Of a DNA stretch of 64,000 nt, positions 111 to 63,878 are shown piece by piece; within the stretch, counting starts at the first letter, position 1, and every line of letters begins with the position of its first letter. The DNA comes from an uncultured Anaerolineaceae bacterium (GTDB taxonomy: Bacteria > Chloroflexota > Anaerolineae > Anaerolineales > E44-bin32), in the NCBI GenBank assembly GCA_964575425.1, contig CAZNRD010000008.1, forward strand, positions 3,161 through 67,160. Direction: 5' to 3'. The notes below the pieces were generated by a model, which saw nothing but the letters and a program-made list of their open reading frames with translations, did no database searches and was not told where the DNA came from. A program made the position numbers and the translations under genes.

Positions 111-170
111 AGCAACGAGCCGGCGCTGACGCCGGCTCAAGATCGCAAGATATCCGCCCAAACGAGATCG

Positions 171-210
171 ACCGGGCGCGTAACCTAATACGCGCCCGGT
201 TGTCTTTCTT
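171..210 (+). terminator. Intrinsic terminator, possibly bidirectional
   Basis: Perfect 12-bp stem ACCGGGCGCGTA / TACGCGCCCGGT with 6-nt loop (171-200), followed by TGTCTTTCTT; lies between convergent genes. Confidence 0.75.
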
Positions 211-322: not shown

Positions 323-1546
323 TCAATCGCCGAGTCGGCCGGAGCCGCGGTAGCGAGACGTGCGGCCCCCGTCCAGCCTCCGCCTCTGGATGGTGGCATC
401 TGGATGCCGCAGCCAAAGCCAGAGCCCCGTCGCCAGTCCCAGCCCGCCCAGGCCGAGGACGCCGAGGAGCAGAAGGGCGTCTCCAAGCGTCATGCGGGAA
501 ATGTAGGACAGCACCAGCCGTCCAGTGTGCGGCGGGGGCGCGACTTCGGGCGCAGGCAGGCCAGTCATCGTGGCGATGACTGCCTGATCTAGCAGGGCGA
601 GTGCAGTCCCGGTGGCGGCGGCCGCGGTTTCCAGTTCGGGTGGGAACATCCCGGGTGGAGTCGCGGTTGTGCTGGGCGAGGGTGTAGCGGTGGCCGACTC
701 AGCGGCGAGGAGTGCGACAGTCGATGTGGGCGCGATCGTTGCCGTCGGCGCAGATGTGCGTGTGATCATCGGGCTGGGCATGCGGGTATATGTAGGCCCT
801 GCGGTGGCAATCGGGCCGTCGGCGGCCGTATGGGTGGGAGCAACCGTCATCGTCCGCGTGGCAGTCGGGCTGGCGGTCGGCCCGGTTGTGGCGGTAGGCC
901 CACCAGGCGTCGATGTCGCGGTCGCTGTCTGAGTGCGCGTCGGAGTGTTGCTCGCAGTTGGTGTGCGCGTGAGGGTGCTCGTCAGTGGTGGGGGCCCCGT
1001 GTTGGTGGCCGTGGGCGAGTTGGGGAGCGCGCTCACGGTGAAGGAGCCGTTCGACAGACTGAGCGTGACGGGGTTGCCGCCTGGGTCGGTGGCAGCGGCG
1101 TTGCTCAGGCTCAGCGGGATGGTGCCAGGTGCGGCGCCAGCGAGCACGTTGAAGGTGACGAGGGCCACCGAACCATCTGGGATGATCTGATCGTTGAATC
1201 CGAAGATGATGACGCGGATGCTGCTGGAGCCAGGCCGTGAGCAGCTAATCAGCTTTCCTGCTCCCGCTGCCGCCGGGCCTAGGGCGACTGCCACGCCGTT
1301 GCATGATCCCGCAGGCACCTCGACGCGGCTGGCGTCAAAGCCAAGGTCGAAGTTCAGACCGGCGACCCGGGCTCCCGACTCCGACGTTAGGTTCACCGGG
1401 ACCGTTATGCCGGTCGCGCCCGGCAGCGCGGAGCCGCCACCGGCGGACAGGACCGCTTGCGGAGCCTGGGCGGCAGCTCGCGGGTGGGACCCAAGGGGCA
1501 GGATAGCCAGGATCATGGCCAAAAAGATACGTGTGCTCCGTGTCAT
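323..1546 (-). CDS. Membrane-anchored cohesin-domain protein (signal peptide, cohesin, Pro/Thr-rich linker, C-terminal TM helix)
   Basis: ATG at 1546 with GGAGGG RBS; signal peptide MTRSTRIFLAMILAILPLGSHPRAAA; cohesin-like beta-sandwich (ITVPVNLTSES…VAGLNFDLGFD…DGSVALVTFNV…SNGSFTV); long T/P linker; TM LLLLGVLGLGGLGLATGLWLWL followed by basic tail. Confidence 0.75.
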   Translation of the reverse strand: MTRSTRIFLAMILAILPLGSHPRAAAQAPQAVLSAGGGSALPGATGITVPVNLTSESGARVAGLNFDLGFDASRVEVPAGSCNGVAVALGPAAAGAGKLISCSRPGSSSIRVIIFGFNDQIIPDGSVALVTFNVLAGAAPGTIPLSLSNAAATDPGGNPVTLSLSNGSFTVSALPNSPTATNTGPPPLTSTLTRTPTASNTPTRTQTATATSTPGGPTATTGPTASPTATRTMTVAPTHTAADGPIATAGPTYTRMPSPMITRTSAPTATIAPTSTVALLAAESATATPSPSTTATPPGMFPPELETAAAATGTALALLDQAVIATMTGLPAPEVAPPPHTGRLVLSYISRMTLGDALLLLGVLGLGGLGLATGLWLWLRHPDATIQRRRLDGGRTSRYRGSGRLGD

Positions 1547-1598
1547 TAACGAGTCCCTCCGGCTCCGAAGTCTGCTGGATGGCCGCACACGGCCCGCC

Positions 1599-4500
1599 TC
1601 AACTTGCCAGGAAGGTCATGATGATGATCTGTACGTCGAGCACGTTGACCTCCCCGTCGCCGTTGACGTCCGCCCGGGCCGTCAGGTTCGGATCGCTGAG
1701 GCCGCCCAGGAAGACGCTGACGCACAGCTGGACATCCACGATGTTGACAAGACCATCCTGATTCACGTCGGCGGACGAGAACACGCCCGGGGGAGTCTCG
1801 GTGGGCGGGGCTATAGGGGTGAGGCTGCTTGTTGGCGCGGCGGTGGCAGTCCACGTGGTTGGCGTCGGCGACTGGGTCGGCGTGGGGGTCAGAGTGGCAG
1901 CAAGCGTCGGTGTGGTGGGCGGCGATCCGGTGGCCGCGACCGTGGGCGTTGGTGTCGCCGTAACGGTGGGTGACTGCGTGGCTGTCGCTGTTGGCGTGAG
2001 CGACGCTGTCACGGTCGGCGACCCCGTAGGGCCGGCCGTCGAAGTAGCCGTCGCCGTCCAAACAGGCGTGGCAGTCGGGGTCGCCCCGGCGCCGCCCAAG
2101 CGCTGGATCTTGAGCGCCACGTCGGACACCAATGGCGACGGCAGGTTGAGCACAAGCGATCCCCCTGAAGCACTGACCTGTTGGGTCAGGAACACCGCAC
2201 CGCTGGTCTTGTAGGTATCCCACCATTCCACCTGGTAGGCGCCTTCCGGGACGTTGGGGATGGTCACGCTGCCGCTGATCGCCGGGATCGCGGGACCATT
2301 GACCACCCGAGTCCACGTATGCAGCCGATTCTGGATCCACAGGTGCATGCGACCGTTCGAGTCGTCGCGTTGACCCCAGGCCCGAAGGTTCGCGTCGGAG
2401 GTCGTCGCACCGACGTCGCGGTAGGAACCGTTGTTGATGGGGATGCCATCCATGAAGTTGCGATAGGCCAGGTAGTGCGGATACAGCCTTTCCGGGATGG
2501 TCTCGGACGCCCACCAGAACAGCATGGGCACACCGCCGGGGCTCAGCTGCGCCCACAGGTTGTTGTGCAGCCAGATCCCGGCCGTGTCCCTGGGCAAGTC
2601 GTTGTTCCAATCCGAGCCGTCGACGATCCCGGCTTCGCCGGCGATCAACGGCTTCCGAGCACCCACCGGGCTGCCGCCGCCAAACAGCTCCCCCACGGAA
2701 CGGTTGTACCAGGCGGTATCTTCGTCCAGGCGTGTGGCGTCGAACTGTCCGATGACCGGTACAATCTGACCGGACGGGCTGACCAACTCAACGTCATCAA
2801 TCCACGCATTTCCAGCCACACCACCGCTGTTCTCAACTCGCAGCGAGATTTCGTGCGGGCCGTCATCCGTGAGGATGAGGCGGAAGGAGGCAGGGATCAG
2901 GGCCCCGCTCCGATCACGATCGCTGCTGAATTGCTGCCAGTCATACGTCCCGCCCGGTGAGGTGCACAGGAAGTCCTTGCCCTCGGCGTTGCCAGGAACC
3001 ACGCCCTCCCTGCCTCCCCAGTAGGTGCCGCCATCGAGGAGCCAGCGGACTCGCTGCATCCCACCCGAGCTGCCAAACTGGCAGTTGGCTGCGAAGGCTT
3101 CCGCCTTCATCCAGTAGCGAACTATCCACTCCCCGGGACCGCGGATCACCAGGCCGCGCGGCACAATCGCCTCATTCCCGTTGTCGCTGCCGGCAATGCG
3201 GACGGAGCCGTTCCCGGAGCGGATGTAGGCGGCGCGGCTTTCCAGCCGGCCCGCGCTGATGTAGGCGGCCGTCGTCACTGCGCTCGGCCCGGCGTAGAGA
3301 TGGATGTCGGCGTAGTCGATCTCCGGATAGCGCTCGTTCGACCAGAATTCCCGGTTTGGAAAGGAGTGCCAGAAAGAGGTGGTCACCATATGCCGGGAGG
3401 GGTCGTTTGCGCGGAAATACCGCGCCATCGCATTGGCCGCGTCATAGTGGTTCCCGTTGTACGGATCCCCCTCGTTGACGAATTCGAAGGAGTGAATCGC
3501 CGTGCTGTATCCCCACCGGGCGATCAAATATCTCCACCAGGCTTCTGCCAGCCAGCGGACCTTGGTCTCCCGGGCGGCATAGAAGTTGTCATTGCTTGCC
3601 GAAGCAGTCATGCTTCCGTCGGACGCGATGCGGTTACGGATCCACTCATTCTTCTCATCAGCAACCAGCTTGAGGTAGACCCCGCGCCGGGCGGCCGTCT
3701 CAAGGATGGCATCCCAGCGGGCCGAGGCCATGGGATCGAATGCCATGTGGCTGTTTGCACCCGGCTCGCGTAGCAGGTTCACGCGATACGGATCGCTTGT
3801 GCGGTACAGGCGCACTTCATCCACATAGACCGTGCCGGCCGATGCGTTCTGCCGTGCCATATACAGATAGTCAAGCCAATACTGCGTTGGGCCAGTGGTG
3901 TAGGTGCCGGTCACCGTCGTCCATCCGTCGGTCGACTGCACGGGTGCGACGATGAGGGTGCCGTTGTTGGGTTGGTCGCATGCTGTGCCGAGCCAATCGG
4001 CCAGCTTGATGACAAAGCCCCAGGCCCCGGTGGTGACCGGACCCCTCAGGCCGCTGAGCAGGACGCGGGCGGTGACAGTGTAGTTCGTCCCGGGCTCAAC
4101 CGGGATGCCCCCTTGGGACCAGTCGGTGAACAGACATGGATTGGCGTCGTCCAGCCTCCAGGCGACGTCGGCACCTCCGTAGGTGGTCCGCGTGTCGAGG
4201 CTTACCCCGGGCAGGTAGGCATCCGATGGCAGGTGGTGCGAGGACCAGGTCGACCATTGCGACCCGTTGATGCTGGAACCGCTCAACCAGACGCGCATCA
4301 GGTTCATGCGGTTGGATTCGAAACTCGCCATCTTCTGCTCGGCGATCGACGTCGTGTTGAAGCTTTCGTTGAACCCAACACCGACGAATGGAGAGCCGTC
4401 ATCGAATTCGAAGTAGCGCGGATCCGACCGGCTGACCCGCACGAAACCCCGCCGGATGTTGGGATTGGCAGATGTCTCCGCCACGCTGAACCGCAGGGCG

Positions 4501-7500
4501 GGCTCCGCCTGCGATGGGTAGTAGCTGATGCCGGAGGCATCCTGGACCCGCAGACGGTATTCCCATTCACCAGCAAGCCTGGGCGCTAAGCGAACCGCCC
4601 AACGAGGTGCTCTGGATGGTGTGAGGTGGTCCCGATTACCAATGATTTTCAGGTTGTAGGACTGGAAGAAGAACCCGGGTTGCACGAGTGTGGTGCGCCA
4701 GCCATCGGCAGAGAACAAACCGTCCACGGTGACACCGATGCCAGCCGACACTCCCGGTGGAGGCGACGGATCGTAAGGCAGGCTCGGGTTCGAGGCGACT
4801 GTCTGTACATCAAACTGGACCTCGAACTTCTCGAACCGGGCGACCCTTGGCGTAGTCACTTCCAGGCCCGAGATCACCGGGCCCCTGGCGACCGCCGTGG
4901 GCGTCCGAGTCGGTGTCGGGGTGACTGTCGGCGTGACCGTCGGCGTGGCTGAGGGTCCGCCAGTGGGAGTCGGCAGGGGCGTCCCGGTGACGTCAGCCTG
5001 CAGTACGGCTACGAGCTTCTGGATCGAATACAGGTCACCTCTGCCCCAGGGCCGGTCGAGCCATGCCGAAAGCGTCGCCTGCGAATCGCCGACGATGTAT
5101 GCATGGGCCAGGAAGTGCGCCCAAGCCGTGCTCGGCGCGAGGCAGGACGTCTCACCGACCTCGGCATGTACACCCGCCCGGGTGAGATACCACCAGCGCA
5201 GACCATCCCCGTTCTCCAGCGACAGCAGGTGTGCCTGCGCCTGTCCGGAGGTCTGTTCACGCAAGTAGAGACCCACCTCCGGCGTCAGGCCGTAGAAGAC
5301 CGGTGCAGACCAACCGGTCGTCATCCCCCGCGGATCCAGGTAATCGTTGGCGGCCCGGTTGCGGAAGGCGGTGAAATCCCTCCCGGCTTCCATCGCGGCG
5401 ACGGCCGCCTGGATGCCTGCCTGGTAGGCCGCAGTCTCGCCGAAATACTGCGCCAGCCTTGCATACCCAATCGCACCAGCGATGTCAGCATAGTAGAACA
5501 TGCTGCCGCGTCGCGATTCAAAGAGCGACCTGGCGTTCGCCCACTGCGACCGCGCGTACGACCAATCGCCAGTGTTCTTCGACCACAACCACAGTGCGTA
5601 CAGGGCGGAGATGTTGGCTGCCGGCGGCGGCCAGCTGTTCAACTCGGAGCGGAACGGGACCTGGTAGGACTCTCTCGCGATGCCCTGCTTCAACCACGGC
5701 GTCCCACCCCACACCAGATCGGTCAAGGGGGGATACCGCCCCATTTCTGCCGCCACGTAGCTTCGCACCTCCGCCTGCAACGCGGAATCCAGGTACGGGT
5801 AGGCGGCTGCCAGGGTGTAGAGGAGCTCGCCCGGGTCGTGCCAGTACACGTTCCCATCGCCTCGGTAACTCACTTCCGGGACGCCGGGAGGGTTGGTCGT
5901 GTTGTAGGGCCAGATGTGGGACTCTGAGAAGCCGCGCTGCAGGTAGTACGGGATCAGGTGGCCGCCGGATGATGTAATCGCCCGAACCTCTGCCCGAAGT
6001 CTTTGCACCAGGTCCGCCGGAGGATTGGCGGCTGGCTGGGTCAGGTCGAGCGTGACATAGTCCGCGAGGGCGCGTGTCTGCACCGGTTGGGATGAACCCT
6101 GGTACGAAACGGACGGTGTGCCGGGCGTGGATGTCCAGACCCTGGGGGCAGGGCATGACGATCCGGCCCGATGCGCGATGGCCGCCAGTCCGCCCTCGAT
6201 CACCCTCCAGTACACCATGTTGGCAGCGACAACCGCCCCGCCCCGCTGGTGCCCCTCGGTCACGCGGGGCGAAGGGAATGGGTAGGCATTGTCACTCGCG
6301 GTCAGAGGGAAGAATGGATTTGGACCACCGGGGCCACACTCAACCGAGCATTCCGGCCACGTGTTAGACACATTGCCAGCGTGAATCAACTGACCCGTGC
6401 TGACGTTGATGCCTCCCAGGCGCTCCCAGTTGTCCACCCACAGGATGCTGCCCCCCATGGTGAGCATGGCTGGCTCATCCGACGTCATGCGGAACTCGGT
6501 GTTGTAGGCCGGATACCCGGATTGCCGCAGGCCGGTGATGTCCAGGGTGGCGGGATTGAGGCTCCCCAACTCAGCGTCGTATCGGGTTGTCACATGCACC
6601 GCACCGCCGTCTGTCTGGATCCCGTGCCGGGCGCGGTAAGAGACATAGATCGAGCTTCCACGGACAACGGGGGCATTCGGGATATCGTTATTGCCGTACG
6701 TGTACAGGATCGGAACGACGCCGCGCGAGGCCCCGGTGGAAACGTCAAGCGCGAAGAAGGTCGCCTTGGTTGGATCGCTTGTCAGGTAGCTGATGATCCG
6801 CGGACGAACATTGGCCCAGTCGTTATTCCAATCGGCAAGGACCGGGCCGGCCTGATCCATGACAGAGTCGCCTTCGCGCAGGAGAATCTGGAAGAAGTGG
6901 ACCGGCTGCGAGCGGTAGAAGACGGTCGAGCCGGAGACCACAGGATACCGATCCGCCAGGCTCATCCCTTGCAGCGGGACCTGCCAGGCACGCGCGCCAG
7001 TCGACGCATTGACGGCGATGGCCTGAATCGCCTCGTTGCCGAACAGGACGAGCGAACCATCCGCGCTCAGGGAAGGTGACGTGAGGATTGGAGCACCTGA
7101 GTCGTACTGCCAGAGGATGGCGCCGTTTGAGACGTTGAGTGCGGTCAGGATCCCGTTGGTGGAGCCGACGAACGCCCGCTGCCGAGAGGAATCGATCAGA
7201 GGAGCCGTCGCGCTGGGTCCGGTTCGGGTCCTCCAGATGAGCGCTCCCGAAGCGGCCTGCAGAGCGTAGGTGAACCCGTCGTGCGAGCTGAACACGACCG
7301 CGTCACCCGACACGCCGGCGGAATGCCGGATCGGACCCCCTGACACGTAAATCCACAGCGGCGCGCCGGTCGCCGCGTCGCGGGCATACATGGCCCCATT
7401 CATCGAACCGATGAACAGCCGCCCGCCCGAAACGACTGGTTGAGCTCGGGATGCGATCGGAGCCTCGTACCACTTCCAGGCGTAGCAGTACGGAGGGTCA

Positions 7501-7721
7501 ACCTGGACCGATGTGGAGTTGCTGCGTTGGGCGTCGCGACCGAGTTGAGGCCAGTCGCTGTCTGCCGATTGCGATGTATCCGCCGCCGTGCTTGCTGAAG
7601 TCTCAGCGCGGACAGGCAGCGCGCCTCCTGCCCAGCCTGAACTCAGGAGCCCCACAGCCAGCGCGATGGCGATCACCCCCCGCAGCAGACGAGCGCGTGC
7701 CCATGCGCCTACACCAATCAT
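1599..7721 (-). CDS. Giant secreted modular protein: PQQ-type beta-propeller + helical domain + DUF5060-like Ig domain + clan GH-A-like glycoside hydrolase with CBM-like insertions + C-terminal dockerin
   Basis: ATG at 7721 with GGAGGAAGG RBS; signal peptide; [12 protein letters not shown] and repeated LYALDAATG-x-LW-like propeller motifs; RFEKFEVQF…GEWEYRL (DUF5060-like); FEFVNEG (Glu codon 3471-3473) and KPLIAGEAG (Glu codon 2634-2636); twin [12 protein letters not shown] / [12 protein letters not shown] at the C-terminus. Confidence 0.8.
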
Positions 7722-8170
7722 CCTTCCTCCGTTCGGGGCGCAGTGCACTGGCCCATTCCGTCCATAGCCTTCTAGGGTCCGTACCACCTGCAGAGCTAAT
7801 CCTCCGGTACTACCCATTCTTCAGCGCCAGCCGGGGTACATCAATCCCCCAAGGGTCAGGGGAGTACCAATGGGGGGCCCAAGATGTGGCCGTCACTCCC
7901 GTCGGATTACCGCACCAACAATGGGCGCCGGATACTCAATTCCGATCCCGTAGACCCGCATCACACCATCCCCAGATCTAGCCCGAGATCGGGCAATCCG
8001 CTGCGGTCCTCTCTGAGACACGATCCGCCGGAGAGTCCCTCAACCAGGGTGGAGAAATGCACAGCGGCCCAGTTCGCTGCTCACGACGCGCGTGAGCACG
8101 GACCGTTCGCTCCCACATCTTGCACGCATCCCTGGCGGACGTTAGAATTGAGCGCGTTGGCCTCCAGACC

Positions 8171-8760: not shown

Positions 8761-9846
8761 GTGCACAGCGTACTGATCACCGGCGGCGCCGGATTCATCG
8801 GCTCCAACTTCGTCCGGCGGATTCTCGCGGCCGAGCCACAGGTGAGGGTCATCAACCTGGACAGCCTGACATACGCTGGGAGCCTGGCCAACCTCACGGA
8901 CCTGCCGGGTGCCGAACGGCACACCTTCGTCGAAGGGGACATCTGCAACGGCGAGTTGGTGGCCCAGCTGATGCAGGAGCACTCTATTGACACCTTGGTC
9001 CACTTCGCCGCCGAAACGCACGTCGACCGGTCGATCCACGGACCGATGCCCTTTGTCTTGACCAATATGGTCGGCACAGCCACTCTGTTGGAAGCCGCCC
9101 GACAGGTCTTCCTCGGCGATCCGGAGAGGAGACGGTCCGGTGTACGTTTCCATCATGTCTCCACCGATGAGGTGTACGGCTCGCTGGGACTTCACGATCC
9201 GGCCTTCTCGGAGACGACACCGTATGCCCCCAACTCGCCGTATGCTGCCTCAAAAGCCGGGAGCGACCACCTCGTCCGGGCCTACGCCCACACGTACGGG
9301 CTGCCGGTGACGATCACCAATTGCTCCAACAACTATGGGCCGCGGCAGCATCCTGAGAAGCTGATCCCCTTCATGATTCTAAACGCCCTCGACGGGAAGC
9401 CGCTCCCGCTGTACGGGGACGGCCTGCAGATTCGTGATTGGCTGTACGTGGAAGACCATTGCGCGGCGATCCTCGCCGTTCTGCGCCACGGACGGCCAGG
9501 GGAGACCTACCACATCGGTGGCGATACGAACGTGACAAACCGTCACGTTGTCGAGATGCTGTGCGCCATCCTCGACCAACTGATTCCCACCTCGCCACAT
9601 GTTCCCCACGCCGCACTGATTCGCTATGTCGCCGATCGGCCCGGCCACGATCGCCGCTACGCCATGGACACTCGCAAGATCCGGGGCGAAATCGGCTGGG
9701 CGCCTTCTGTCACGCTGGAGAGCGGGCTGCGCAAGACCGTGGCCTGGTACCTTGCGAACCCAGAGTGGCTGGCCGCCATGCGACAACGACCGACTTTCGA
9801 AGCCTGGTTGCAGGCCAATTACGCGACGCGAGGAACAGCCCGATGA
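8761..9846 (+). CDS. rmlB: dTDP-glucose 4,6-dehydratase
   Basis: GTG start after GGAGG; [45 protein letters not shown]. Confidence 0.96.
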
Positions 9847-10736: not shown

Positions 10737-12253
10737 ACCGGATCCTCCTCTTTGGCAACACCGGGCAGCTCGGGTGGGAATTGGATCGCTGCCTGGCCCC
10801 CCTGGGTGAGGTTACCGCCCTGGATCTGCCCCAGATCGACCTGGCTCGCCCGGCGATGGTCAGGGAGGTCATCCGCGCCCGCCACCCCGACCTGATCATC
10901 AACGCCACCGCATACACCGCCGTCGACAAGGCCGAATCGGAGCCGGACCTGGCCCGCCGCATCAATGCCGAAGCTCCTGGCATCATGGCAGAGGAATCCA
11001 GGCGGATCGGCGCGGCATTCATCCACTACTCGACGGACTACGTGTTCAACGGACAGGCCTGCCGGCCCTATACCGAGGCGGATAGTCTCGATCCACTCAG
11101 TGTCTATGGGGCGACCAAGCTGGAGGGAGAGGAAGTTGTTCGCCAAGTTGCTGGATCCTACCTGATCCTGCGGACGAGCTGGGTCTATAGTCTGCGGCGC
11201 AGGAGCTTCGTCACCCAGGTGATGGAATGGGCACGCACCCGACAGGTTCTCCGGGTGGCCACCGACCAGGTCGGCAGCCCGACGTGGTGCAGGATGCTGG
11301 CGGAGGCAACGGCGCATCTCATCGCTCGCCTTGAAGGTGCACCTGTCGATGCTCTGCGAGAGCATTCCGGCGTGTTTCATTTGGCGGGCAGCGGGGCCGC
11401 CAGCCGTTATGAATGGGCACGCCTGATCCTCAATCTCGACCCACACCGCGAGGAGCACACACTGCGAGAGCTCCAGCCCGCGCTTGCGTCTGAGTTCCCT
11501 TCCTCTGCACGGAGACCCGGCTACTCTGCGCTCAACTGCGACTTGTTCCACTCAACCTTCGGGCTGAGGCTTCCCGATTGGAGGCAGGCGCTCCGGCTGG
11601 CGATGTCTGATGACCAATGGAGAGGCTCTTCACTGCAGCCGGCCGCATGGACTCGGGAATCCAGTGATGACGGACCTGACGAGAACCCCCGTGCTCTGCG
11701 ACCGGCGCTCTTCCTGGATCGCGATGGTGTGATCATCGAGAACCGCGAGGACTACCTGCGCGCCTGGGATCAAGCGGCCATCATCCCCGGCGTGTTGTCA
11801 GCTCTTGCCCGTGCACGGTCCTCACCTTATGCCATCGTCATCATCACCAATCAGTCCGCCATCGGACGCGGCCTGATCGACCGATCCACGGCTGATGAGA
11901 TCAATGCCCGCTTGGTCGCTGCGATACAGGATGCCGGCGGGCGTGTGGATGGTGTGTTCATGTGTCCACATGCTCCCGAGGCCGGCTGCGACTGCCGCAA
12001 GCCGCAGCCGGGGCTTGTGCTGCAGGCAGCACGCGCTTTGTCTGTTGATCTTGCGCGATCGGTGCTTGTCGGAGATGCCCTGAGTGACATTCTGGCTGCA
12101 CGCGCCGCTGGCGTACCTCAGGCAATACTCGTTCGTACAGGCCGGGGGAACGAACAGCTTTCGCTCGCTGGAGACGCAGCCCTCGCCGACATCTGCATCT
12201 ATGACAACCTGCCCCAGGCGCTTGACGCGATCCTTGGCCACGAGTGCCAATGA
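10733..12253 (+). CDS. rmlD: Fusion: dTDP-4-dehydrorhamnose reductase (RmlD) + HAD-family D,D-heptose-1,7-bisphosphate phosphatase (GmhB-like)
   Basis: GTGA overlap; [39 protein letters not shown]; then in the same frame [22 protein letters not shown]-x-CDCRKP, VGDALSD. Confidence 0.88.
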
Positions 12254-12397
12254 ATGACGATGCCCGGCCTATTCTCAGGCCGGGCATCGAAATAGACGCT
12301 TCCTTGCAGTCAGTTGCGCGGGAAGCTAGGTGTCAGGCCGGTCTGTCGAAGGAGCGCCGCGCGAACGCCCCCGTCAACCGGAGGGCCTGTCGGAGAC

Positions 12398-14002
12398 TCA
12401 CCTTTTCTGCGCCGCGTCCAGGGCTGTCGCTGCCGGGTTGGCTCCGCCGGCCCCTCCCAGATACCCCTTGTAGTCTCCAAGCGTATCCAGGTCTGCTCGG
12501 GAAACCCGGTTGAGCACCATGCCCAGCACTGTCGCGCCGGCACGATCCAGCTGAGCCAGCATGGCACGTGCGGCGTTGCGCGACGTATGGCCAGGGCGAA
12601 CAATGACCAGCACCCCGTCAACCTTGGACGCCAGGACGGAGGCATCGGCGAGGCTAAACGGCGGTGCATCAACCACCAGGATTTCGGCCAGCGAGCGCGC
12701 CCCGACAAGGATCTCATCCATGCGCCGGGAGCTGAGCAGCTCGGTTGGGTTCGGCGGCGGCTTGCCGGCAGGAATCGCGAGCAGAAGGCCGTCACTGGCT
12801 ATGGTGACGATTTCGGCGGGTTCCTTGCGACTCAGAAAGATGTCGCTCAGACCAGGCGACATCGGTATGCCCAACAGTTTGTGGACGCCCGGCTGCCGCA
12901 GGTCGGCATCGACCACCGCTACGCTCTTGCCGGCATGCGCCATGGCCGATGCCAGGTGGACGGCAATTGTGGTCTTGCCTTCATCCGGACCGGGACTGGC
13001 CATCAAGATGGCCTGCAAAGGCCTGTCGACCGAAGCAAACTCGAGGTTGGTCCGCAAGACGCGCAGCGCCTCCATCAGGGCCGGCTGACTCGTCGGATCG
13101 GCCAGCATTCCTCCTTGCTTCTCACTGCCGCTGTCCGATGGCTTGATCTCCCCGATCATGCCGATGACCGGCAACCCCAGCAGCCGCAATGCCTCTTCCG
13201 GGGTCTTCAGCGAGGTATCCATGTACTCCAGCAAGTAGGTGGTGCTGCAACCCAGGATGCCGCCCGCCACCCCGGCCAGCAGGGCGAGCAGGATATCACT
13301 GGGCCCAATGGGGCGCTCCGGAAGGCCCGCCGGCTCGATGAGTGTCAGGAAGTTGACCGCTCCGCTCTCGCTGCTGGCCAGCAGCGTGGCATAGTTCGCC
13401 TGCAACGCGGCGAGTTTCGTCTGCAACGCCTCAAGCTCTGCCTGGGCACGGGCGATCTCCACGGCGCCGGTCAGTCCGACCAACCCCTCCTGCTGCGCAG
13501 CAATTCTCGCCTGCACCTCCTCGATGTTGGCTTGCAGGAAATCCAGCTGCTGGTCAATGAAGCGCTGACGGCCTTCTTGGGAGGCGACCGGGCCGGTGGG
13601 GCTAAGCAGGATGACCTGATTGGCTATCTCGTTGGCGACGGCCTGGGCCCGCTGCGGACTGGTGTCGGTGACGATGATCTCAACGAGCTGCGCCTCTGGG
13701 ATCGACCGGGTCTCATATCTTGGCAGCTCCGCCAGCCCCAGGGCCGCCTTGGTTGCGTTGCGCACAGGGTCGCGGCGCGCCAGTGCAGCGTAGGTGTCCG
13801 CGAGGCGTTCGCCGAGCCCGAGTTGTGTGGTGGTCGGATTGGGTTCAAACACTGTCCGACCAATCATCAAGGCGGCACGGGCCTGATAGGTCGGGGGAAG
13901 GTGGTTGAGGATTACTGCGCTGGCCACCAGGCCCACGCCGGCGGTACTTATCACCAACCACCACCACTTGCGAATCGGCGCCAAGTAGGATTGAAGATCC
14001 AT
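12398..14002 (-). CDS. Wzc/CpsD-like polysaccharide co-polymerase with BY-kinase domain
   Basis: N-terminal TM, coiled coil, second TM; EALRVLRTNL, Walker A SPGPDEGKTT, Walker A' VVDADLRQP, Walker B VVDAPP. Confidence 0.9.
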   Translation of the reverse strand: MDLQSYLAPIRKWWWLVISTAGVGLVASAVILNHLPPTYQARAALMIGRTVFEPNPTTTQLGLGERLADTYAALARRDPVRNATKAALGLAELPRYETRSIPEAQLVEIIVTDTSPQRAQAVANEIANQVILLSPTGPVASQEGRQRFIDQQLDFLQANIEEVQARIAAQQEGLVGLTGAVEIARAQAELEALQTKLAALQANYATLLASSESGAVNFLTLIEPAGLPERPIGPSDILLALLAGVAGGILGCSTTYLLEYMDTSLKTPEEALRLLGLPVIGMIGEIKPSDSGSEKQGGMLADPTSQPALMEALRVLRTNLEFASVDRPLQAILMASPGPDEGKTTIAVHLASAMAHAGKSVAVVDADLRQPGVHKLLGIPMSPGLSDIFLSRKEPAEIVTIASDGLLLAIPAGKPPPNPTELLSSRRMDEILVGARSLAEILVVDAPPFSLADASVLASKVDGVLVIVRPGHTSRNAARAMLAQLDRAGATVLGMVLNRVSRADLDTLGDYKGYLGGAGGANPAATALDAAQKR

Positions 14003-47602: not shown

Positions 47603-49138
47603 CTAACGCAACCCGTAGAGCTCGTATCCGCCGATCGCGTATACGAGCTCGTATTCCGTCACCAGCACATCTGGCGGATACAAACCTACCCAACGGGCGA
47701 ACTTGCCCACCAGGACATAAGGCGGCGCCGTCGGCTGGTCGAAGTCGTAGCTCTCCGAGGGCGGAGGCCCGCCTCGCCAGATATGGGCGACTGCTGTGTT
47801 CAGCAAGGACTGCGGTGGGTAGTGAAAGGTGTGGTCCGTCAGGAATCCCATCTCTGGTTCCCAGGTCTCAATCAGAACTGTCCGGGAAATGTGCTCATCC
47901 AGGTACTCTGCCATGGCCGCCGGCGCATTGAACGGTGGCGAGACGATCTCACGAACCGTCTGAGCCAGCGGGATGAGAATCATCATGACCAGCCAGCCCA
48001 AGCCTGCCAGTCGCAGCCCTTGGGCTACCCACAAATCCGGAGCCGCTCCGGGCGCAGACCCGGGGGGCGCCTTCCCGCCGAAACCCCCTGCCCAGTCCTC
48101 GATCAGTTTGGCTACGAAGAGGGCAGCGATGGCCAGTGCAGGAAACGCGTAGCGCAACCAGCCGATGGAAGCAATTGCGTACCACAGGAGGTTGACGAGA
48201 ACAAAGGCCGTCAGGAAAGCCCAAGATAGCCCCAGGATTGTCCTGGCTCGGCTCTGCCAGATTGCGTAGATAACGGAAGGCAGAAGGGCGCCTAGGAAGA
48301 CCTTCCAATCCAGCAGCTCGCGGACCGATCGCTCAAGCAGGGTCGGCGAGAACACCACAGCCGCCCCACTGGCTGTCTGACTGAGTTGGCGCAGGTTCTC
48401 GGCAAGCGACAACGGCGACAGGGCCAGGACCAGAACCCCCTGCCAGCCTGCAAACAGCACAATGCACAGGGAGACCGGCAAGAGAAATACCCGATGTGGG
48501 ACAGCGCGGTAGTAGGTGAGGTTGGCCAACCACCCCACGACCAGGGCTGGAACCAGCACAATCAGAGTCTGCTGCTTGGTAACCGCTGCCAGGCCAAAGA
48601 GGAGACCGACCACAGCGAGCCTGCTTGTCGACGGATGAGTCATTGCCGCAAACCAGAGGCAGGTTCCACAGAGAAGAAAGAACAGCGCGGGTACCTCACC
48701 CAGAACCTGCCTCCCATACTCAATCGCCGGCGCACCGCGCGAGGAGACAAACAGGACCGTCGCGATCCACGCGTACCAGAGACCGCCCAGGCGCCGTGCG
48801 ACAGCATAGAAGGCGACGGCACATCCCATCAGATACAGCGCAACCACAAGCCGAGCCTGCCATAGCCCAATGCCGAGCACGGCGAATGACCCCGCAATTG
48901 GAAGCATGACCGTCGGCCCGACACCTGTCGATGGACCGAAGTAGCGGAAGCCTTCGCTGCTGCGATCGGCGTACACCCCAAACTGCACCAGGGTCTTAGG
49001 GACATGGAGATGCGACCCCTCGTCAAACCAGATAAGGGGATACTGATCCAACCGCCAGAAGGCCAGTATGCCCAGTGCTGCGATCGAGACCAGCAGCACC
49101 AGCGTATAGGGTCGGTTCGGCACAGGCGGCACGCTCAC
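47603..49138 (-). CDS. GT39/ArnT-like GT-C membrane glycosyltransferase
   Basis: GTG start; WFDEG in first loop, GEVP, TKQ, WLRY; C-terminal soluble domain. Confidence 0.8.
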   Translation of the reverse strand: MSVPPVPNRPYTLVLLVSIAALGILAFWRLDQYPLIWFDEGSHLHVPKTLVQFGVYADRSSEGFRYFGPSTGVGPTVMLPIAGSFAVLGIGLWQARLVVALYLMGCAVAFYAVARRLGGLWYAWIATVLFVSSRGAPAIEYGRQVLGEVPALFFLLCGTCLWFAAMTHPSTSRLAVVGLLFGLAAVTKQQTLIVLVPALVVGWLANLTYYRAVPHRVFLLPVSLCIVLFAGWQGVLVLALSPLSLAENLRQLSQTASGAAVVFSPTLLERSVRELLDWKVFLGALLPSVIYAIWQSRARTILGLSWAFLTAFVLVNLLWYAIASIGWLRYAFPALAIAALFVAKLIEDWAGGFGGKAPPGSAPGAAPDLWVAQGLRLAGLGWLVMMILIPLAQTVREIVSPPFNAPAAMAEYLDEHISRTVLIETWEPEMGFLTDHTFHYPPQSLLNTAVAHIWRGGPPPSESYDFDQPTAPPYVLVGKFARWVGLYPPDVLVTEYELVYAIGGYELYGLR

Positions 49139-61439: not shown

Positions 61440-61958
61440 TCAGGCCAAGCCGCGTGCCTTCGGGGCAATGTGATCGGCGTTCAGCACAACAGGCATCGGG
61501 CGCCCGCCCAAGACGGAGAGAAGCACACGCACTCGGGCCCGACCCGAAAGCCGTTCGTCAAACATGGCCTCGTACCCAGTGAGCGGGCCTTCCTGAATTA
61601 GGACCGCGTCGCCGCGGACAACGCCTTGCAGCGGATCACGGCGGAGTGCAGCCGCGAGTCGAACGCGTTTCTGCAGCGCAAAGATCACCGCGTCCGGAAC
61701 TCTTGCGGGCTCTCCACCGAATGCCACGAGGCCTCTCACATGCGGTATGAAGCGGAAAGCCGTCGCGCCAACCTTCCCCAGATCGGCATGCACGAACATG
61801 TATCCCGGAAAGTAGGGCCGGACCTTGCGGGCCCGCGGGTTCACAGGCCGCACGACCAGGATTGGGTAGAAGACTTCGTAACCCCTCGCCTTCACCAGGT
61901 GGCAGGCTATGTCTTCTTTGTTCGGCTTGGTGTGCAGTGCGTACCAATCCATCGTCAT
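61440..61958 (-). CDS. NusG-paralog transcription antitermination factor (RfaH/UpxY/LoaP-like)
   Basis: [30 protein letters not shown] (NGN domain); [18 protein letters not shown] (KOW); first gene of the ~50-kb cluster. Confidence 0.9.
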
Positions 61959-62211
61959 CACCCAAGGCCTCCCCATTACGAAGACGGCCATTTTCCGGCC
62001 GGCTGCCGCATAGGCACACCCCTACCCTGCTCCCATGCAGAACACCGGCCCGAGCACGCGTGACCCACACCCTCAAGCCCGGCCCTGATGGCGCGCAATC
62101 ACAACAGTCCAGCAGTCGTCGAGAGCGGCCCGCTTGCAGGACTGCGACCTTGCGTCCAGTTCTCTCGGAAGGCTTCCGGCGCATAGACTGACGCTTTGCG
62201 AACCCGCGCTC

Positions 62212-62671: not shown

Positions 62672-63442
62672 CTAGGGGCTGGACACCAAACCGTGGCGCA
62701 TGGCCCAGACTGCCGCCTGGGTCCGATCGGAGACGCCGAGTTTGGTCAAGACGTTGTGAACGTGGGATTTGACCGTGTTACGACTCAGGCACAGACGCTC
62801 GGCGATTGCCGCGTTGTCCATCCCCTCGGCGACCAGCGTCAGGATCCGGATCTCTTGCGGCGTCAGATCCGGCACGTCCCTTTCCTCGCCATCAACCGTC
62901 GCCCTCGTTGAGTCTACCAGCGCTCGCAGGGCAGACTGAAGGAGATGGTGCTCGACGACGGTCTCGCCCTCAGCGACCGCCTTGACCGCCTGCGGGATCT
63001 TCTCGGGGTCCGCCGACTTCGGCAGGAAACCAGCGGCCCCAAGTATCACGGCTCGTGCGAAGTACTCGGGATTGCTAAATGAAGTGAGCATGAGGACGCT
63101 CGTCTGCGGGCGCGCGGCCTTGATCGATGCCAGCGCCTCGAGGCCATCCATGTCCGGCATCCGGATGTCCAGAAGGAGCACATCTGGTTCCAGGACCAGG
63201 GTTTTCTCCATCGCCTGCCGGCCTGTCATGGCCTCCCCAACAACCTCGATGCCCTCCTTGCCCAGGATCATCTTGAGTCCTTCGATAATGAGCGGGTGGT
63301 CATCGGCGACCAACACCCGGACAGCCCGCCGCGTTGGCGGGCGGCTCGCCTCGGCCTTCTTGGCCTCGCGGGCTCCGGGGCGGCGCCGGCCGGTGGGCGA
63401 TCCCCTGCGCCGGCGGTCAGGTTGGTCATCCTGTAGTCGCAT
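62672..63442 (-). CDS. NarL/LuxR-family response regulator (REC + HTH)
   Basis: VLVADDHPLI, DVLLLDIRMPDMDG, GAAGFLPK, LTPQEIRIL…GMDNAAIAERLCLSRNTVKSHV; start uncertain. Confidence 0.93.
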   Translation of the reverse strand: MRLQDDQPDRRRRGSPTGRRRPGAREAKKAEASRPPTRRAVRVLVADDHPLIIEGLKMILGKEGIEVVGEAMTGRQAMEKTLVLEPDVLLLDIRMPDMDGLEALASIKAARPQTSVLMLTSFSNPEYFARAVILGAAGFLPKSADPEKIPQAVKAVAEGETVVEHHLLQSALRALVDSTRATVDGEERDVPDLTPQEIRILTLVAEGMDNAAIAERLCLSRNTVKSHVHNVLTKLGVSDRTQAAVWAMRHGLVSSP

Positions 63443-63878
63443 CGCCTTACCCAGCAGAACGCGCTCGCTTTTCTGGCAAGCGCACCGGAGGGCCATTGTG
63501 TCTATGGGTGCCACCACACTCTGAAATGGCGCAGGGTTCACCCTGCCAGCGGAGAGTGCACGATGCGTGCCTCTCGTGCTACAAGATCATCCATCCGGCC
63601 TACCCCACAACTGCCCGAATCACCCCTCGGCGGCGACACCCTCCACTCACCAGCACGGAGCACTTGCTCGCGAGGGTACGCCCCATCGCCGGCCGATCGT
63701 CCTGGCGGGGAGACAGACGTGGAAGCCGAAGGCATTACAATAAGACCCCGGCCACCTTCCTCTTGCATCCGACCGCTCACAAGAGGGTTTCCCAGCAGGT
63801 TGGCCATGGCGATCAAAGAAGGACCAGTCCTAACAGCCAGAGTTGACATATAGACATCGATGGATCCAGCCTCTTTAC

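Follow-up and report, generated by a model that had tools for sequence, protein, structure and literature searches.

A single-cohesin membrane anchor and a dockerin-bearing GH5-like enzyme as a probable surface-display pair beside an envelope-glycan locus in Anaerolineaceae

Two neighbouring genes are described from a stretch of 64,000 nucleotides (nt) of an uncultured Anaerolineaceae bacterium (contig CAZNRD010000008.1 of assembly GCA_964575425.1, positions 3,161 to 67,160), the whole of which is called the window here. One gene encodes a giant secreted enzyme ending in a dockerin, and the next encodes a membrane protein with a single cohesin. The two probably form a surface-display pair in which the single-cohesin anchor holds the dockerin-bearing enzyme, perhaps for remodelling of the cell's own glycan, the anchor itself being likely shared with other enzymes. 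Both proteins would be made from one probable transcript and exported by the Sec pathway. After cleavage of its signal peptide the anchor would remain as a type I membrane protein, kept in place by a C-terminal transmembrane helix and a basic tail, and its Thr/Pro stalk of ~125 residues would keep a single type I-like cohesin clear of the membrane, with a reach that may come to tens of nanometres, through wall or sheath. The C-terminal dockerin of the secreted enzyme would bind this cohesin, presumably in a Ca-dependent manner, leading to surface retention instead of diffusion, and a second flexible linker of ~100 residues would hold the propeller/GH5-like enzyme (GH, glycoside hydrolase) at the surface, where its most likely job would be cutting or remodelling the cell's own rhamnose-containing surface glycan. 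The physical binding, its Ca dependence, the membrane topology, the joint transcript and the substrate of the enzyme are inferred from sequence.

The features of the two genes and of their junction are the following (aa, amino acids; ORF, open reading frame; AF2, AlphaFold2):

323..1546, minus strand: cohesin anchor gene, 407 aa, an ORF with ATG at 1546 and stop codon at 323-325
1466..1546, minus strand: signal peptide of the anchor, aa 1-27 (MTRSTRIFLAMILAILPLGSHPRAAAQA, ...AAAQA), read from the sequence, with a putative cleavage site
1034..1459, minus strand: cohesin domain, aa 30-171, a type I-like beta-sandwich by AF2, Foldseek and profile match
647..1024, minus strand: Thr/Pro/Ala-rich stalk, aa 175-300, 126 aa, delimited by composition
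566..640, minus strand: conserved Ala/Thr-rich helix, aa 303-327 (LETAAAATGTALALLDQAVIATMTG), from the family alignment and AF2
407..487, minus strand: C-terminal transmembrane helix, aa 354-380, from an AF2 helix and hydropathy
326..406, minus strand: basic (Arg-rich) cytoplasmic tail, aa 381-407 (RHPDATIQRRRLDGGRTSRYRGSGRLGD), read from the sequence
1547..1598, minus strand: intergenic spacer of 52 nt with the Shine-Dalgarno sequence GGAGG at 1556-1560, read from the sequence
1602..1772, minus strand: dockerin module, aa 2016-2072, two F-hand Ca-binding repeats at the extreme C-terminus, by Pfam and profile
1788..2093, minus strand: Thr/Pro linker 2, aa 1909-2010, joining enzyme to dockerin (T 35%, P 21%, A 18%; disordered in AF2)
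2094..4847, minus strand: GH5-like catalytic module, aa 991-1908, by PDB match, AF2 and Foldseek
4848..4988, minus strand: Thr/Pro linker 1, aa 944-990, 47 aa, at which two parts encoded by separate genes in loci L009 and L013 are fused
4989..7721, minus strand: N-terminal half of the giant protein, with signal peptide, PQQ_2/BamB-like beta-propeller and a conserved domain at aa ~560-943, by Pfam and PDB matches
1599..7817, minus strand: ORF of the giant secreted protein, 2072 aa, with no internal stop
169..202, plus strand: 14-bp GC-rich hairpin with T-run from a terminator scan, separating the cohesin gene from the convergent gene upstream

Both modules of the proposed pair were recognised by Pfam, whose matches are judged throughout against curated gathering cut-offs (Cohesin 24.1 bits, Dockerin_1 22.9 bits and SLH, the S-layer homology domain, 20.8 bits). 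Dockerin_1 (PF00404) was found at aa 2016-2068 of the giant protein (window 1614-1772; 42.1 bits, E 1e-10), and Cohesin (PF00963) at aa 47-171 of the anchor with 31.2 bits. The initial annotation, made from the DNA letters alone, had placed a dockerin at 1602-1772 at the end of the giant protein, had read the neighbouring gene as signal peptide, cohesin, Thr/Pro stalk and C-terminal transmembrane helix, and had named the two Pfam profiles as its check; the location, the architecture and both profile matches bear it out. It was also right that the cohesin gene comes next and runs in the same direction, and its coordinates hold within one base; the gap measures 52 nt, not 53.

The dockerin reaches the last codon at 1602, the protein ending 23 residues past the start of the second loop. 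Both F-hand loops are intact, with D/N at positions 1, 3, 5, 9 and 12, and the Ca-ligand positions are invariant or D/N-only across 13 related dockerins. A profile built from 13 dockerins taken from cassette loci recovered the solved type I dockerins 4fl4_A, 2y3n_B, 1ohz_B and 2ccl_B at E 4e-6 to 2e-4. The module is almost symmetric, VLDVQ..VN.FL occurring once in each half, and if clostridial type I dockerins are a guide, this symmetry would be compatible with a dual binding mode. When both modules were looked for by a six-frame scan with a family cohesin hidden Markov model (HMM) and a dockerin-loop pattern, over ORFs of at least 60 aa, the 64-kb window yielded one cohesin and one genuine dockerin only.

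At the junction of the genes, GGAGG lies nine bases ahead of the ATG at 1546 and the upstream gene stops with TGA. The start at this ATG is backed by the Shine-Dalgarno sequence as well as by the N-termini of homologues, and the equivalent spacing amounts to 10-122 nt in relatives. Since the terminator scan found no terminator-like site in the spacer between the dockerin and cohesin genes, the two are probably co-transcribed, and the hairpin at 169-202 is likely to form the end of both convergent transcripts.

The cohesin assignment is strengthened by structure prediction. AF2, run for the anchor with a 32-sequence family alignment, modelled aa 30-171 with a predicted local distance difference test score (pLDDT) of 95-98, and all of the top 50 Foldseek matches of this model in the PDB are cohesins. 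The best of them (6kgf, 2vn5, 1g1k and 5nrm; target-normalised TM-score 0.79-0.85, E ~1e-11) belong to type I and come from C. acetobutylicum, C. cellulolyticum and A. cellulolyticus, and a profile of the cohesin-domain family independently found the solved type I cohesins 1g1k and 2vn5 among PDB sequences at E 1e-9. The nine-stranded flattened beta-sandwich (jelly-roll) of cohesins is confirmed for the anchor domain at the level of the predicted model. Six members of the anchor family (P0001, which is the window anchor, its best homologue P0002, and P0004, P0006, P0011 and P0021) carry a short two-cysteine insertion (G.C.G ... SCS) at alignment columns ~108-140, corresponding to aa 82-104 in the window; the remaining members have neither the insertion nor the second Cys, and show SWS instead. 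The insertion looks like a co-varying loop of the cohesin that is probably disulfide-bonded.

The remainder of the anchor has the layout of a stalked membrane protein. AF2 predicts a helix at aa 3-19 of the signal peptide, and the AAAQ motif is conserved ahead of the cohesin in the family alignment. The stalk (31% Thr, 17% Pro, 17% Ala; disordered in AF2) keeps its length and composition in the family and does not keep its sequence. It is followed by a helix at aa 303-327 with pLDDT of 60-73 and then by the transmembrane helix, in which pLDDT rises up to 90 and the Kyte-Doolittle maximum is 1.9 over aa 359-377. An RRR-type tail occurs in most homologues. Under the positive-inside rule, which is well established, the basic C-terminal tail indicates that the anchor presumably lies N-out, C-in. 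Inspection of the anchor gave no LPXTG (sortase) or PEP-CTERM-type sorting signal, and the Pfam scan gave no carbohydrate-binding module (CBM) on it. A side observation concerns the Ala/Thr-rich helix (LETAAAATGTALALLDQAVIAT), which stands between the stalk and the transmembrane helix and is the best-conserved non-cohesin part of the family, with near-invariant columns in the 32 anchor sequences at T312, A315, A322, V323, T326 and T328-A331; oligomerisation and wall contact are possible roles for it.

Homologues of the anchor number 31 (305-403 aa), and all of them carry PF00963 in a single-cohesin layout. Full-length members consist of signal peptide, cohesin, Thr/Pro stalk, the helix LETAAAATGTALAxLDxAVxATATALA, transmembrane helix and basic tail; P0030 ends before the transmembrane region. 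The family members are 35-55% identical and the full architecture is kept. Wherever an organism name was attached, the source was a metagenome-assembled genome (MAG) of Chloroflexota or Anaerolineae, in keeping with the probable Chloroflexota origin that had been proposed from the sequence; two species genomes of GTDB (Genome Taxonomy Database) with the anchor belong to Ca. Aquidulcis sp. (Chloroflexota, Ca. Limnocylindria) and to an uncultured Anaerolineaceae bacterium. The anchor-bearing MAGs include GCA_036986135.1.

The pairing of the two modules is conserved with the family. A synteny check set beforehand, made with the six-frame cohesin and dockerin scan, covered nine loci whose flanks could be read, namely the window, L001-L007 and L010, and in 9/9 a dockerin-ending gene stood beside the cohesin gene. 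Each locus has one to three such ORFs at 10-500 nt from its cohesin gene; some lie upstream and are co-directional, others lie downstream and are convergent. L008, a tenth locus, stands outside this count as its cohesin lies at the contig start with the upstream side missing, and L011 was left out for its different architecture. Each cargo carries one dockerin, at the extreme C-terminus behind a flexible linker, and the cargo itself varies: a giant PQQ/GH5-like enzyme in the window and L010; an S8 peptidase in L002, L004 and L006, apparently split in L003; an M23/Laminin_G_3 protein in L001 and L004, to which a protein of L006 with Laminin_G_3 only is related; and a Pel9A-like (pectate-lyase-like) beta-helix in L005. 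On these mutually unrelated enzymes the cassette dockerins form one tight subtype (67% mean column identity) with the pattern D[LV]N.DG.V[DN]VLDVQLCVNVFLG..., reaching the C-terminus.

The same subtype extends well past the cassettes. An exhaustive phmmer search with the window dockerin returned 3130 proteins at E <=1e-3, and because this output is dominated by multi-dockerin proteins, 18 proteins with a single C-terminal dockerin match (51-64% identity to the window dockerin) were picked by hand for a cargo census. Beta-helix/pectate-lyase-like, Laminin_G_3, GSDH, S8, PQQ propeller, GH28, M23 and chondroitinase-B-like proteins were found among them. Since the same dockerin subtype is found on many enzyme types, the anchor looks, by its sequence relatives, like a shared docking site for varied exoenzymes. 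The claim of a one-enzyme, dedicated anchor in the initial annotation is not supported by these observations, with one to three dockerin genes per cohesin in relatives and a changing cargo; the anchor is probably not private to the giant enzyme and belongs to a Chloroflexota-wide family of single-cohesin anchors with varying cargo.

The strongest indirect support for a role of the dockerin in surface retention comes from the tails of the GH module. Its homologues number more than 335, with identities and tails taken from the 120 listed, which are 46-72% identical and mostly stand-alone proteins of ~1000 aa; the few with organism names are from Chloroflexota. Tails of at most 40 aa are found in at least 79 of the 120, and another 33 were unclassifiable by the motif used. 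P0071 (72% identical, from L009) and P0074 continue with a Thr/Pro linker and three SLH repeats; the tail of P0071 scores 26.6 bits against Pfam SLH and matches the SLH domain of B. anthracis Sap (3pyw) at E 4e-6, and the separate propeller protein of L009 also has an SLH-like end, which scores 16.4 bits and so stays below the cut-off. In P0085 the Thr/Pro linker leads into a transmembrane helix and a basic tail, and P0161 (L010) and the window enzyme have a Thr/Pro linker and the dockerin. The dockerin occupies exactly the tail position of SLH and transmembrane segments, which are established or obvious envelope anchors, and the two loci whose enzyme bears it, the window and L010, are the two with a cohesin anchor directly downstream. 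L010 has the full-architecture anchor ~57 nt downstream of the same enzyme; in L009, L012 and L013 the enzyme comes without dockerin and there is no cohesin gene. Because the tails alternate between SLH, transmembrane helix and dockerin, and because the cohesin gene co-occurs with the dockerin, this comparison of sequences supports surface retention as the function of the pair. In L010 the gene caller had overlooked the cohesin ORF (11755-12987, plus strand) and had placed a spurious minus-strand gene over it.

The enzyme is a fusion of two parts. In the N-terminal half PQQ_2 was found with 84 bits, along with propeller matches in the PDB. This half is 74% identical to a separate 1246-aa gene of L009 whose start aligns with M33, which by sequence comparison makes M33 at 7721, 32 codons inside the annotated start, probably the true start of the giant gene. 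Propeller and GH module are adjacent separate genes in L009 (6147-13861) and L013 (8235-12934); they are fused in the window and, independently, in P0128 (L012, 10001-14713). P0116 appears to be fused too, with propeller and DUF5060 matches, and the enzyme of L010 is likewise a fusion. Between the propeller and linker 1 lies a domain of ~380 aa (aa ~560-943, window 4989-6137, minus strand) with 61-74% identity in L009 and L010; the domain had no match in Pfam, and aa 301-974 had no match among PDB sequences.

The catalytic half starts with a DUF5060 Ig-like domain, continues with a (beta/alpha)8 barrel into which two beta-sandwich domains are inserted, and closes with a C-terminal beta-sandwich. 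Pfam gave weak matches to DUF5060 and CBM_4_9 on the giant protein, and a weak Cellulase match in the homologue P0071. The segment at aa 975-1940 matched 9gmj/9gpc ('DUF5060 domain-containing protein') at E 1.5e-23. AF2 modelled the module with pLDDT >90 and a predicted TM-score (pTM) of 0.83, and the best Foldseek match was ManDH5, a GH5 beta-mannanase (TM-score 0.79-0.81, E 4e-31), followed by GH5 and GH140 barrels. The N-E and G-E motifs align with those of ManDH5, FVNE(1449)GD with FWNE(303)VD and AGE(1728)AG with VGEFG, giving E1449 as candidate acid/base and E1728 as candidate nucleophile. By its modelled fold and by its motifs the cargo module is a clan GH-A/GH5-like glycoside hydrolase, predicted to be a retaining glycanase. 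ManDH5 of Dictyoglomus thermophilum (9gmj, 9gpa, 9gpc) shares the N-terminal DUF5060 domain, the barrel and the catalytic Glu motifs; the window module differs in its two large inserted beta-sandwich domains, the N-terminal fusion of ~950 aa and the dockerin.

The surroundings of the cassette give an indication of the substrate. A glycan locus of ~50 kb (window 12398-63541), almost entirely in one direction (minus strand), contains rmlCBAD, a Bac_transf priming transferase, at least nine glycosyltransferases (GTs), two Wzy-like proteins (one TPR-fused) and a flippase. It also holds genes for BY-kinase-like, SIS-GAF, GHMP kinase, BNR/sialidase-like, AsnB-like and Acyl_transf_3-GDSL proteins, DMFA2_C with a purple-acid-phosphatase N domain, PMT_2, UDP-GlcNAc 2-epimerase, DegT and a B12/radical-SAM enzyme. 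The locus, of the Wzx/Wzy type for an envelope glycan or exopolysaccharide (EPS), fills the rest of the window, and its gene set recurs in L010, L012 and L013. A biosynthetic glycan locus next to the pair had been noticed from the letters alone, and the context proved both real and conserved: in 5/5 contexts the PQQ and GH5-like pair is placed inside this glycan locus or next to it, and the five have in common rmlCBAD, Bac_transf, GHMP kinase, SIS-GAF, BY-kinase-like, HAD phosphatase, B12/radical-SAM, DMFA2_C, PMT_2, GT1/GT2/GT4 and Wzy. Since the enzyme pair is a conserved component of a biosynthesis locus, it would act on the cell's own glycan. Secreted glycanases such as PslG, BcsZ and PelA are found in EPS loci, where they are thought to trim or release the polymer of the locus; they belong to other GH families and offer a functional analogy for the cargo, and a cohesin-dockerin pair is not known to hold any of them. 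From the gene neighbourhood and the analogy with PslG and BcsZ, a role on the cell's own glycan is favoured for the cargo, tentatively and as slightly short of an even chance.

Two further observations were made in the locus. A NusG paralogue (61440-61991, minus strand) and a LuxR-type response regulator (62672-63541, minus strand) stand at the upstream end of the glycan operon. The same regulators, with an LMW (low-molecular-weight) phosphatase and an epimerase, lie directly upstream of the S8-dockerin/cohesin cassette in L002 (3936-6827), and a LuxR-type regulator and an epimerase precede the cassette in L006 (22-1652), where the contig begins at the regulator. This suggests antitermination of the locus by the NusG paralogue and a recurrent link between cassette and regulon. 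In addition, PMT_2, a protein O-mannosyltransferase-like enzyme, is encoded inside the locus (window 47603-49138, minus strand; L012 19587-20927). Thr/Pro linkers are often O-glycosylated in other bacteria, and it may be speculated that PMT_2 glycosylates those of anchor and cargo.

Several points weigh against a surface-display pair acting on the cell's own glycan. The dockerin was modelled by AF2 with pLDDT <50, in a region where the alignment is thin and with a method that does not model Ca. At its canonical recognition positions 10/11 it has hydrophobic residues (IV/VL) where C. thermocellum has Ser-Thr, so specificity is not readable from known complexes. The window is 64 kb of the genome, and further cohesins or dockerins may exist beyond it. 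Some cohesin-like domains serve other roles. The enzyme gene of L010 is interrupted, relative to the window, by an in-frame stop (8793-8795) and a frameshift (~9050), which could be assembly error or decay. The substrate assignment is drawn from gene neighbourhood only, and ManDH5, a plant-type beta-mannanase, is only 15% identical over the Foldseek structural alignment, an identity too low for the substrate of the GH module to be inferred from it.

A different reading of the same pair has the two proteins bind and the enzyme serve as a nutrient-scavenging glycanase, for instance on environmental mannan, in a minimal cellulosome-like foraging device whose position by the locus is incidental. 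The closest solved structure is indeed a GH5 beta-mannanase, the cargo has CBM4_9-like insertions, and the same dockerin subtype is borne by exoenzymes of a typically degradative kind, among them pectate-lyase-like beta-helices, GH28 and proteases. However, the enzyme pair keeps its place in or beside the same biosynthetic locus in five of five loci from divergent genomes (56-72% identity), and the window showed neither transporter nor catabolic genes of the sort expected in a utilisation locus, which makes foraging rather unlikely. It is improbable that the cohesin protein is an adhesin or a cell-cell or sheath-assembly protein and that the neighbouring dockerins bind glycan, S-layer or the cohesin of another cell: tight adjacency in 9/9 loci with one specific dockerin subtype, a single dockerin per cargo that is always extreme C-terminal past a flexible linker, and SLH and transmembrane tails at the same position in homologues all point to retention on the producer cell. 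The proposal draws on the many proteins with 6-23 tandem dockerins, on the often filamentous habit of Anaerolineae and on the suggestion that non-cellulosomal dockerins act as adhesins (PMC10066038). As for a pairing that is no longer functional, a decaying or horizontally acquired remnant, the interrupted cargo gene of L010 would fit it, as would the lack of a cohesin-dockerin system in L009, the closest relative of the enzyme; yet neither of the two window ORFs is broken, the larger running through 2072 aa with no stop, the 13 dockerins do not vary at the Ca-ligand positions, the cohesin family retains its architecture at 35-55% identity, and the Shine-Dalgarno sequence and the gene spacing are preserved, and this explanation is regarded as very improbable.

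The preferred explanation, a surface-display pair that tends the cell's own glycan, can be widened. The long-stalked single cohesin may be a general docking hub of Chloroflexota tied to envelope-glycan loci, which would hold GH5-like, beta-helix lyase-like, S8 and M23 enzymes at a set height over the membrane, there to build, trim or turn over the cell's own sheath or EPS, the coupling serving envelope maintenance, not foraging, and being evolutionarily interchangeable with SLH or transmembrane anchoring. This wider proposal is possible and is put forward with some doubt.

In working principle the closest known systems are OlpA and OlpC of C. (Acetivibrio) thermocellum, in which an envelope-anchored single type I cohesin binds enzyme dockerins directly, without a multi-cohesin scaffoldin, and whose structures (3ul4 and 4dh2) are among the fold matches of the window cohesin. 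They differ in having SLH repeats on a Firmicutes wall and in belonging to a plant-cell-wall cellulosome system, whereas the window anchor has a C-terminal transmembrane helix, a long Thr/Pro stalk, a Chloroflexota host and a glycan-biosynthesis cargo. Cohesin and dockerin modules outside cellulosomes and cellulolytic organisms were reportedly described by Peer and co-workers in 2009, and a non-cellulosomal cohesin of Archaeoglobus fulgidus (2xdh) is number 11 among the fold matches, with a TM-score of 0.83. The parent proteins of such modules are predominantly non-catalytic (PMC13487519); the window cassette belongs to this broad category and differs from it, as so summarised, in that its dockerin-bearing parents are enzymes and the pair forms a conserved gene cassette.

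Also close are the nonSLH-anchoring scaffoldins with a C-terminal transmembrane helix. A cohesin followed by a C-terminal transmembrane helix and basic tail, as found in the anchor, is the layout of this class (PMC11557425). In the 2024 genome survey that reported it, scaffoldins with one cohesin plus a transmembrane helix at the C-terminus were found in Lachnoclostridium sp. MSJ-17, H. luporum and C. cibarium; they represent the same predicted class, on a bioinformatic basis only, and some of their hosts are non-cellulolytic. The differences are that the hosts are Firmicutes, that several of the cohesins are type II and that no conserved cargo adjacency was reported. Binding partners are unclear for two of the species (PMC11557425), whereas here the partner is assigned by synteny in 9/9 loci. 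Another system, between 'cellulosome' and 'non-cellulosomal', is ClcC of Cellulosilyticum lentocellum, which likewise combines a single-cohesin protein with a dockerin-GH5 enzyme (PMC13487519). ClcC carries a CBM and its enzyme is a functional cellulase, whereas the anchor described here has no CBM and is attached by a membrane helix, and its enzyme lies in a biosynthetic locus.

A cellulosome is defined by a scaffoldin with at least two cohesins (PMC13487519, PMC11557425). In the strict sense it also comprises dockerin-fused glycoside hydrolases for the plant cell wall and a scaffoldin CBM that targets cellulose. The cassette falls outside this strict definition, with one cohesin per anchor, likewise in 31/31 homologues, no CBM on the anchor, other cargos that are proteases and LamG proteins, and a GH5-like cargo in a biosynthetic locus. 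The term cellulosome-like, under which the pair was first annotated, therefore stands for the coupling mechanism only; a multi-cohesin scaffoldin and a CBM on the anchor are both absent. This cassette did not come up in literature searches that combined cohesin and dockerin with Chloroflexi or Anaerolineae, and a search for the function of ManDH5 or DUF5060 found no paper.

How cohesins and dockerins couple is well understood for cellulosomes. Catalogues of modules from outside cellulosomes go back to 2009, but hardly any of these is known to have an identified partner or role. The present pair follows a familiar coupling principle; its novelty lies in the conserved cassette, the identification of partners by adjacency, the tie to an envelope-glycan locus and the natural exchange of dockerin, SLH and transmembrane segments. 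The alternation of these tails on one enzyme family amounts to a natural domain-swap experiment that points to surface retention, and the pairing with different cargos in relatives points to a general surface-pinning of enzymes outside cellulose degradation. The cassette also offers a testable model for the organisation of surface enzymes in poorly cultured, often sheathed bacteria, and it provides protein-display engineering with a compact cohesin-dockerin pair that is probably orthogonal.

The searches for further loci differed in their yield. Scanning the genome collection with a 6-sequence anchor alignment gave no locus, patterns of the Ala-rich helix leading to 475 false candidates; with the cohesin-domain alignment the scan gave two loci only. 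When the 64-aa dockerin was used in a word-index search, all matches were gene fragments of 40-74 aa, which were uninformative on cargo. The metagenome scan gave one locus, L011 (metagenome contig Ga0114922_10017890), where a cohesin 46% identical to the family (5451-6398) is followed by cadherin-like repeats; it stands next to secretion or pilus-like genes on a contig with AT-rich-looking ORFs, with no dockerin nearby. Finally, the top phmmer matches to the window dockerin carry 6-23 dockerins in tandem and are otherwise without obvious features; among them are P0191-P0211, of which P0211 has 2796 aa and 23 repeats; they are reminiscent of a giant ORF with nine dockerins in Omnitrophota (PMC10066038).

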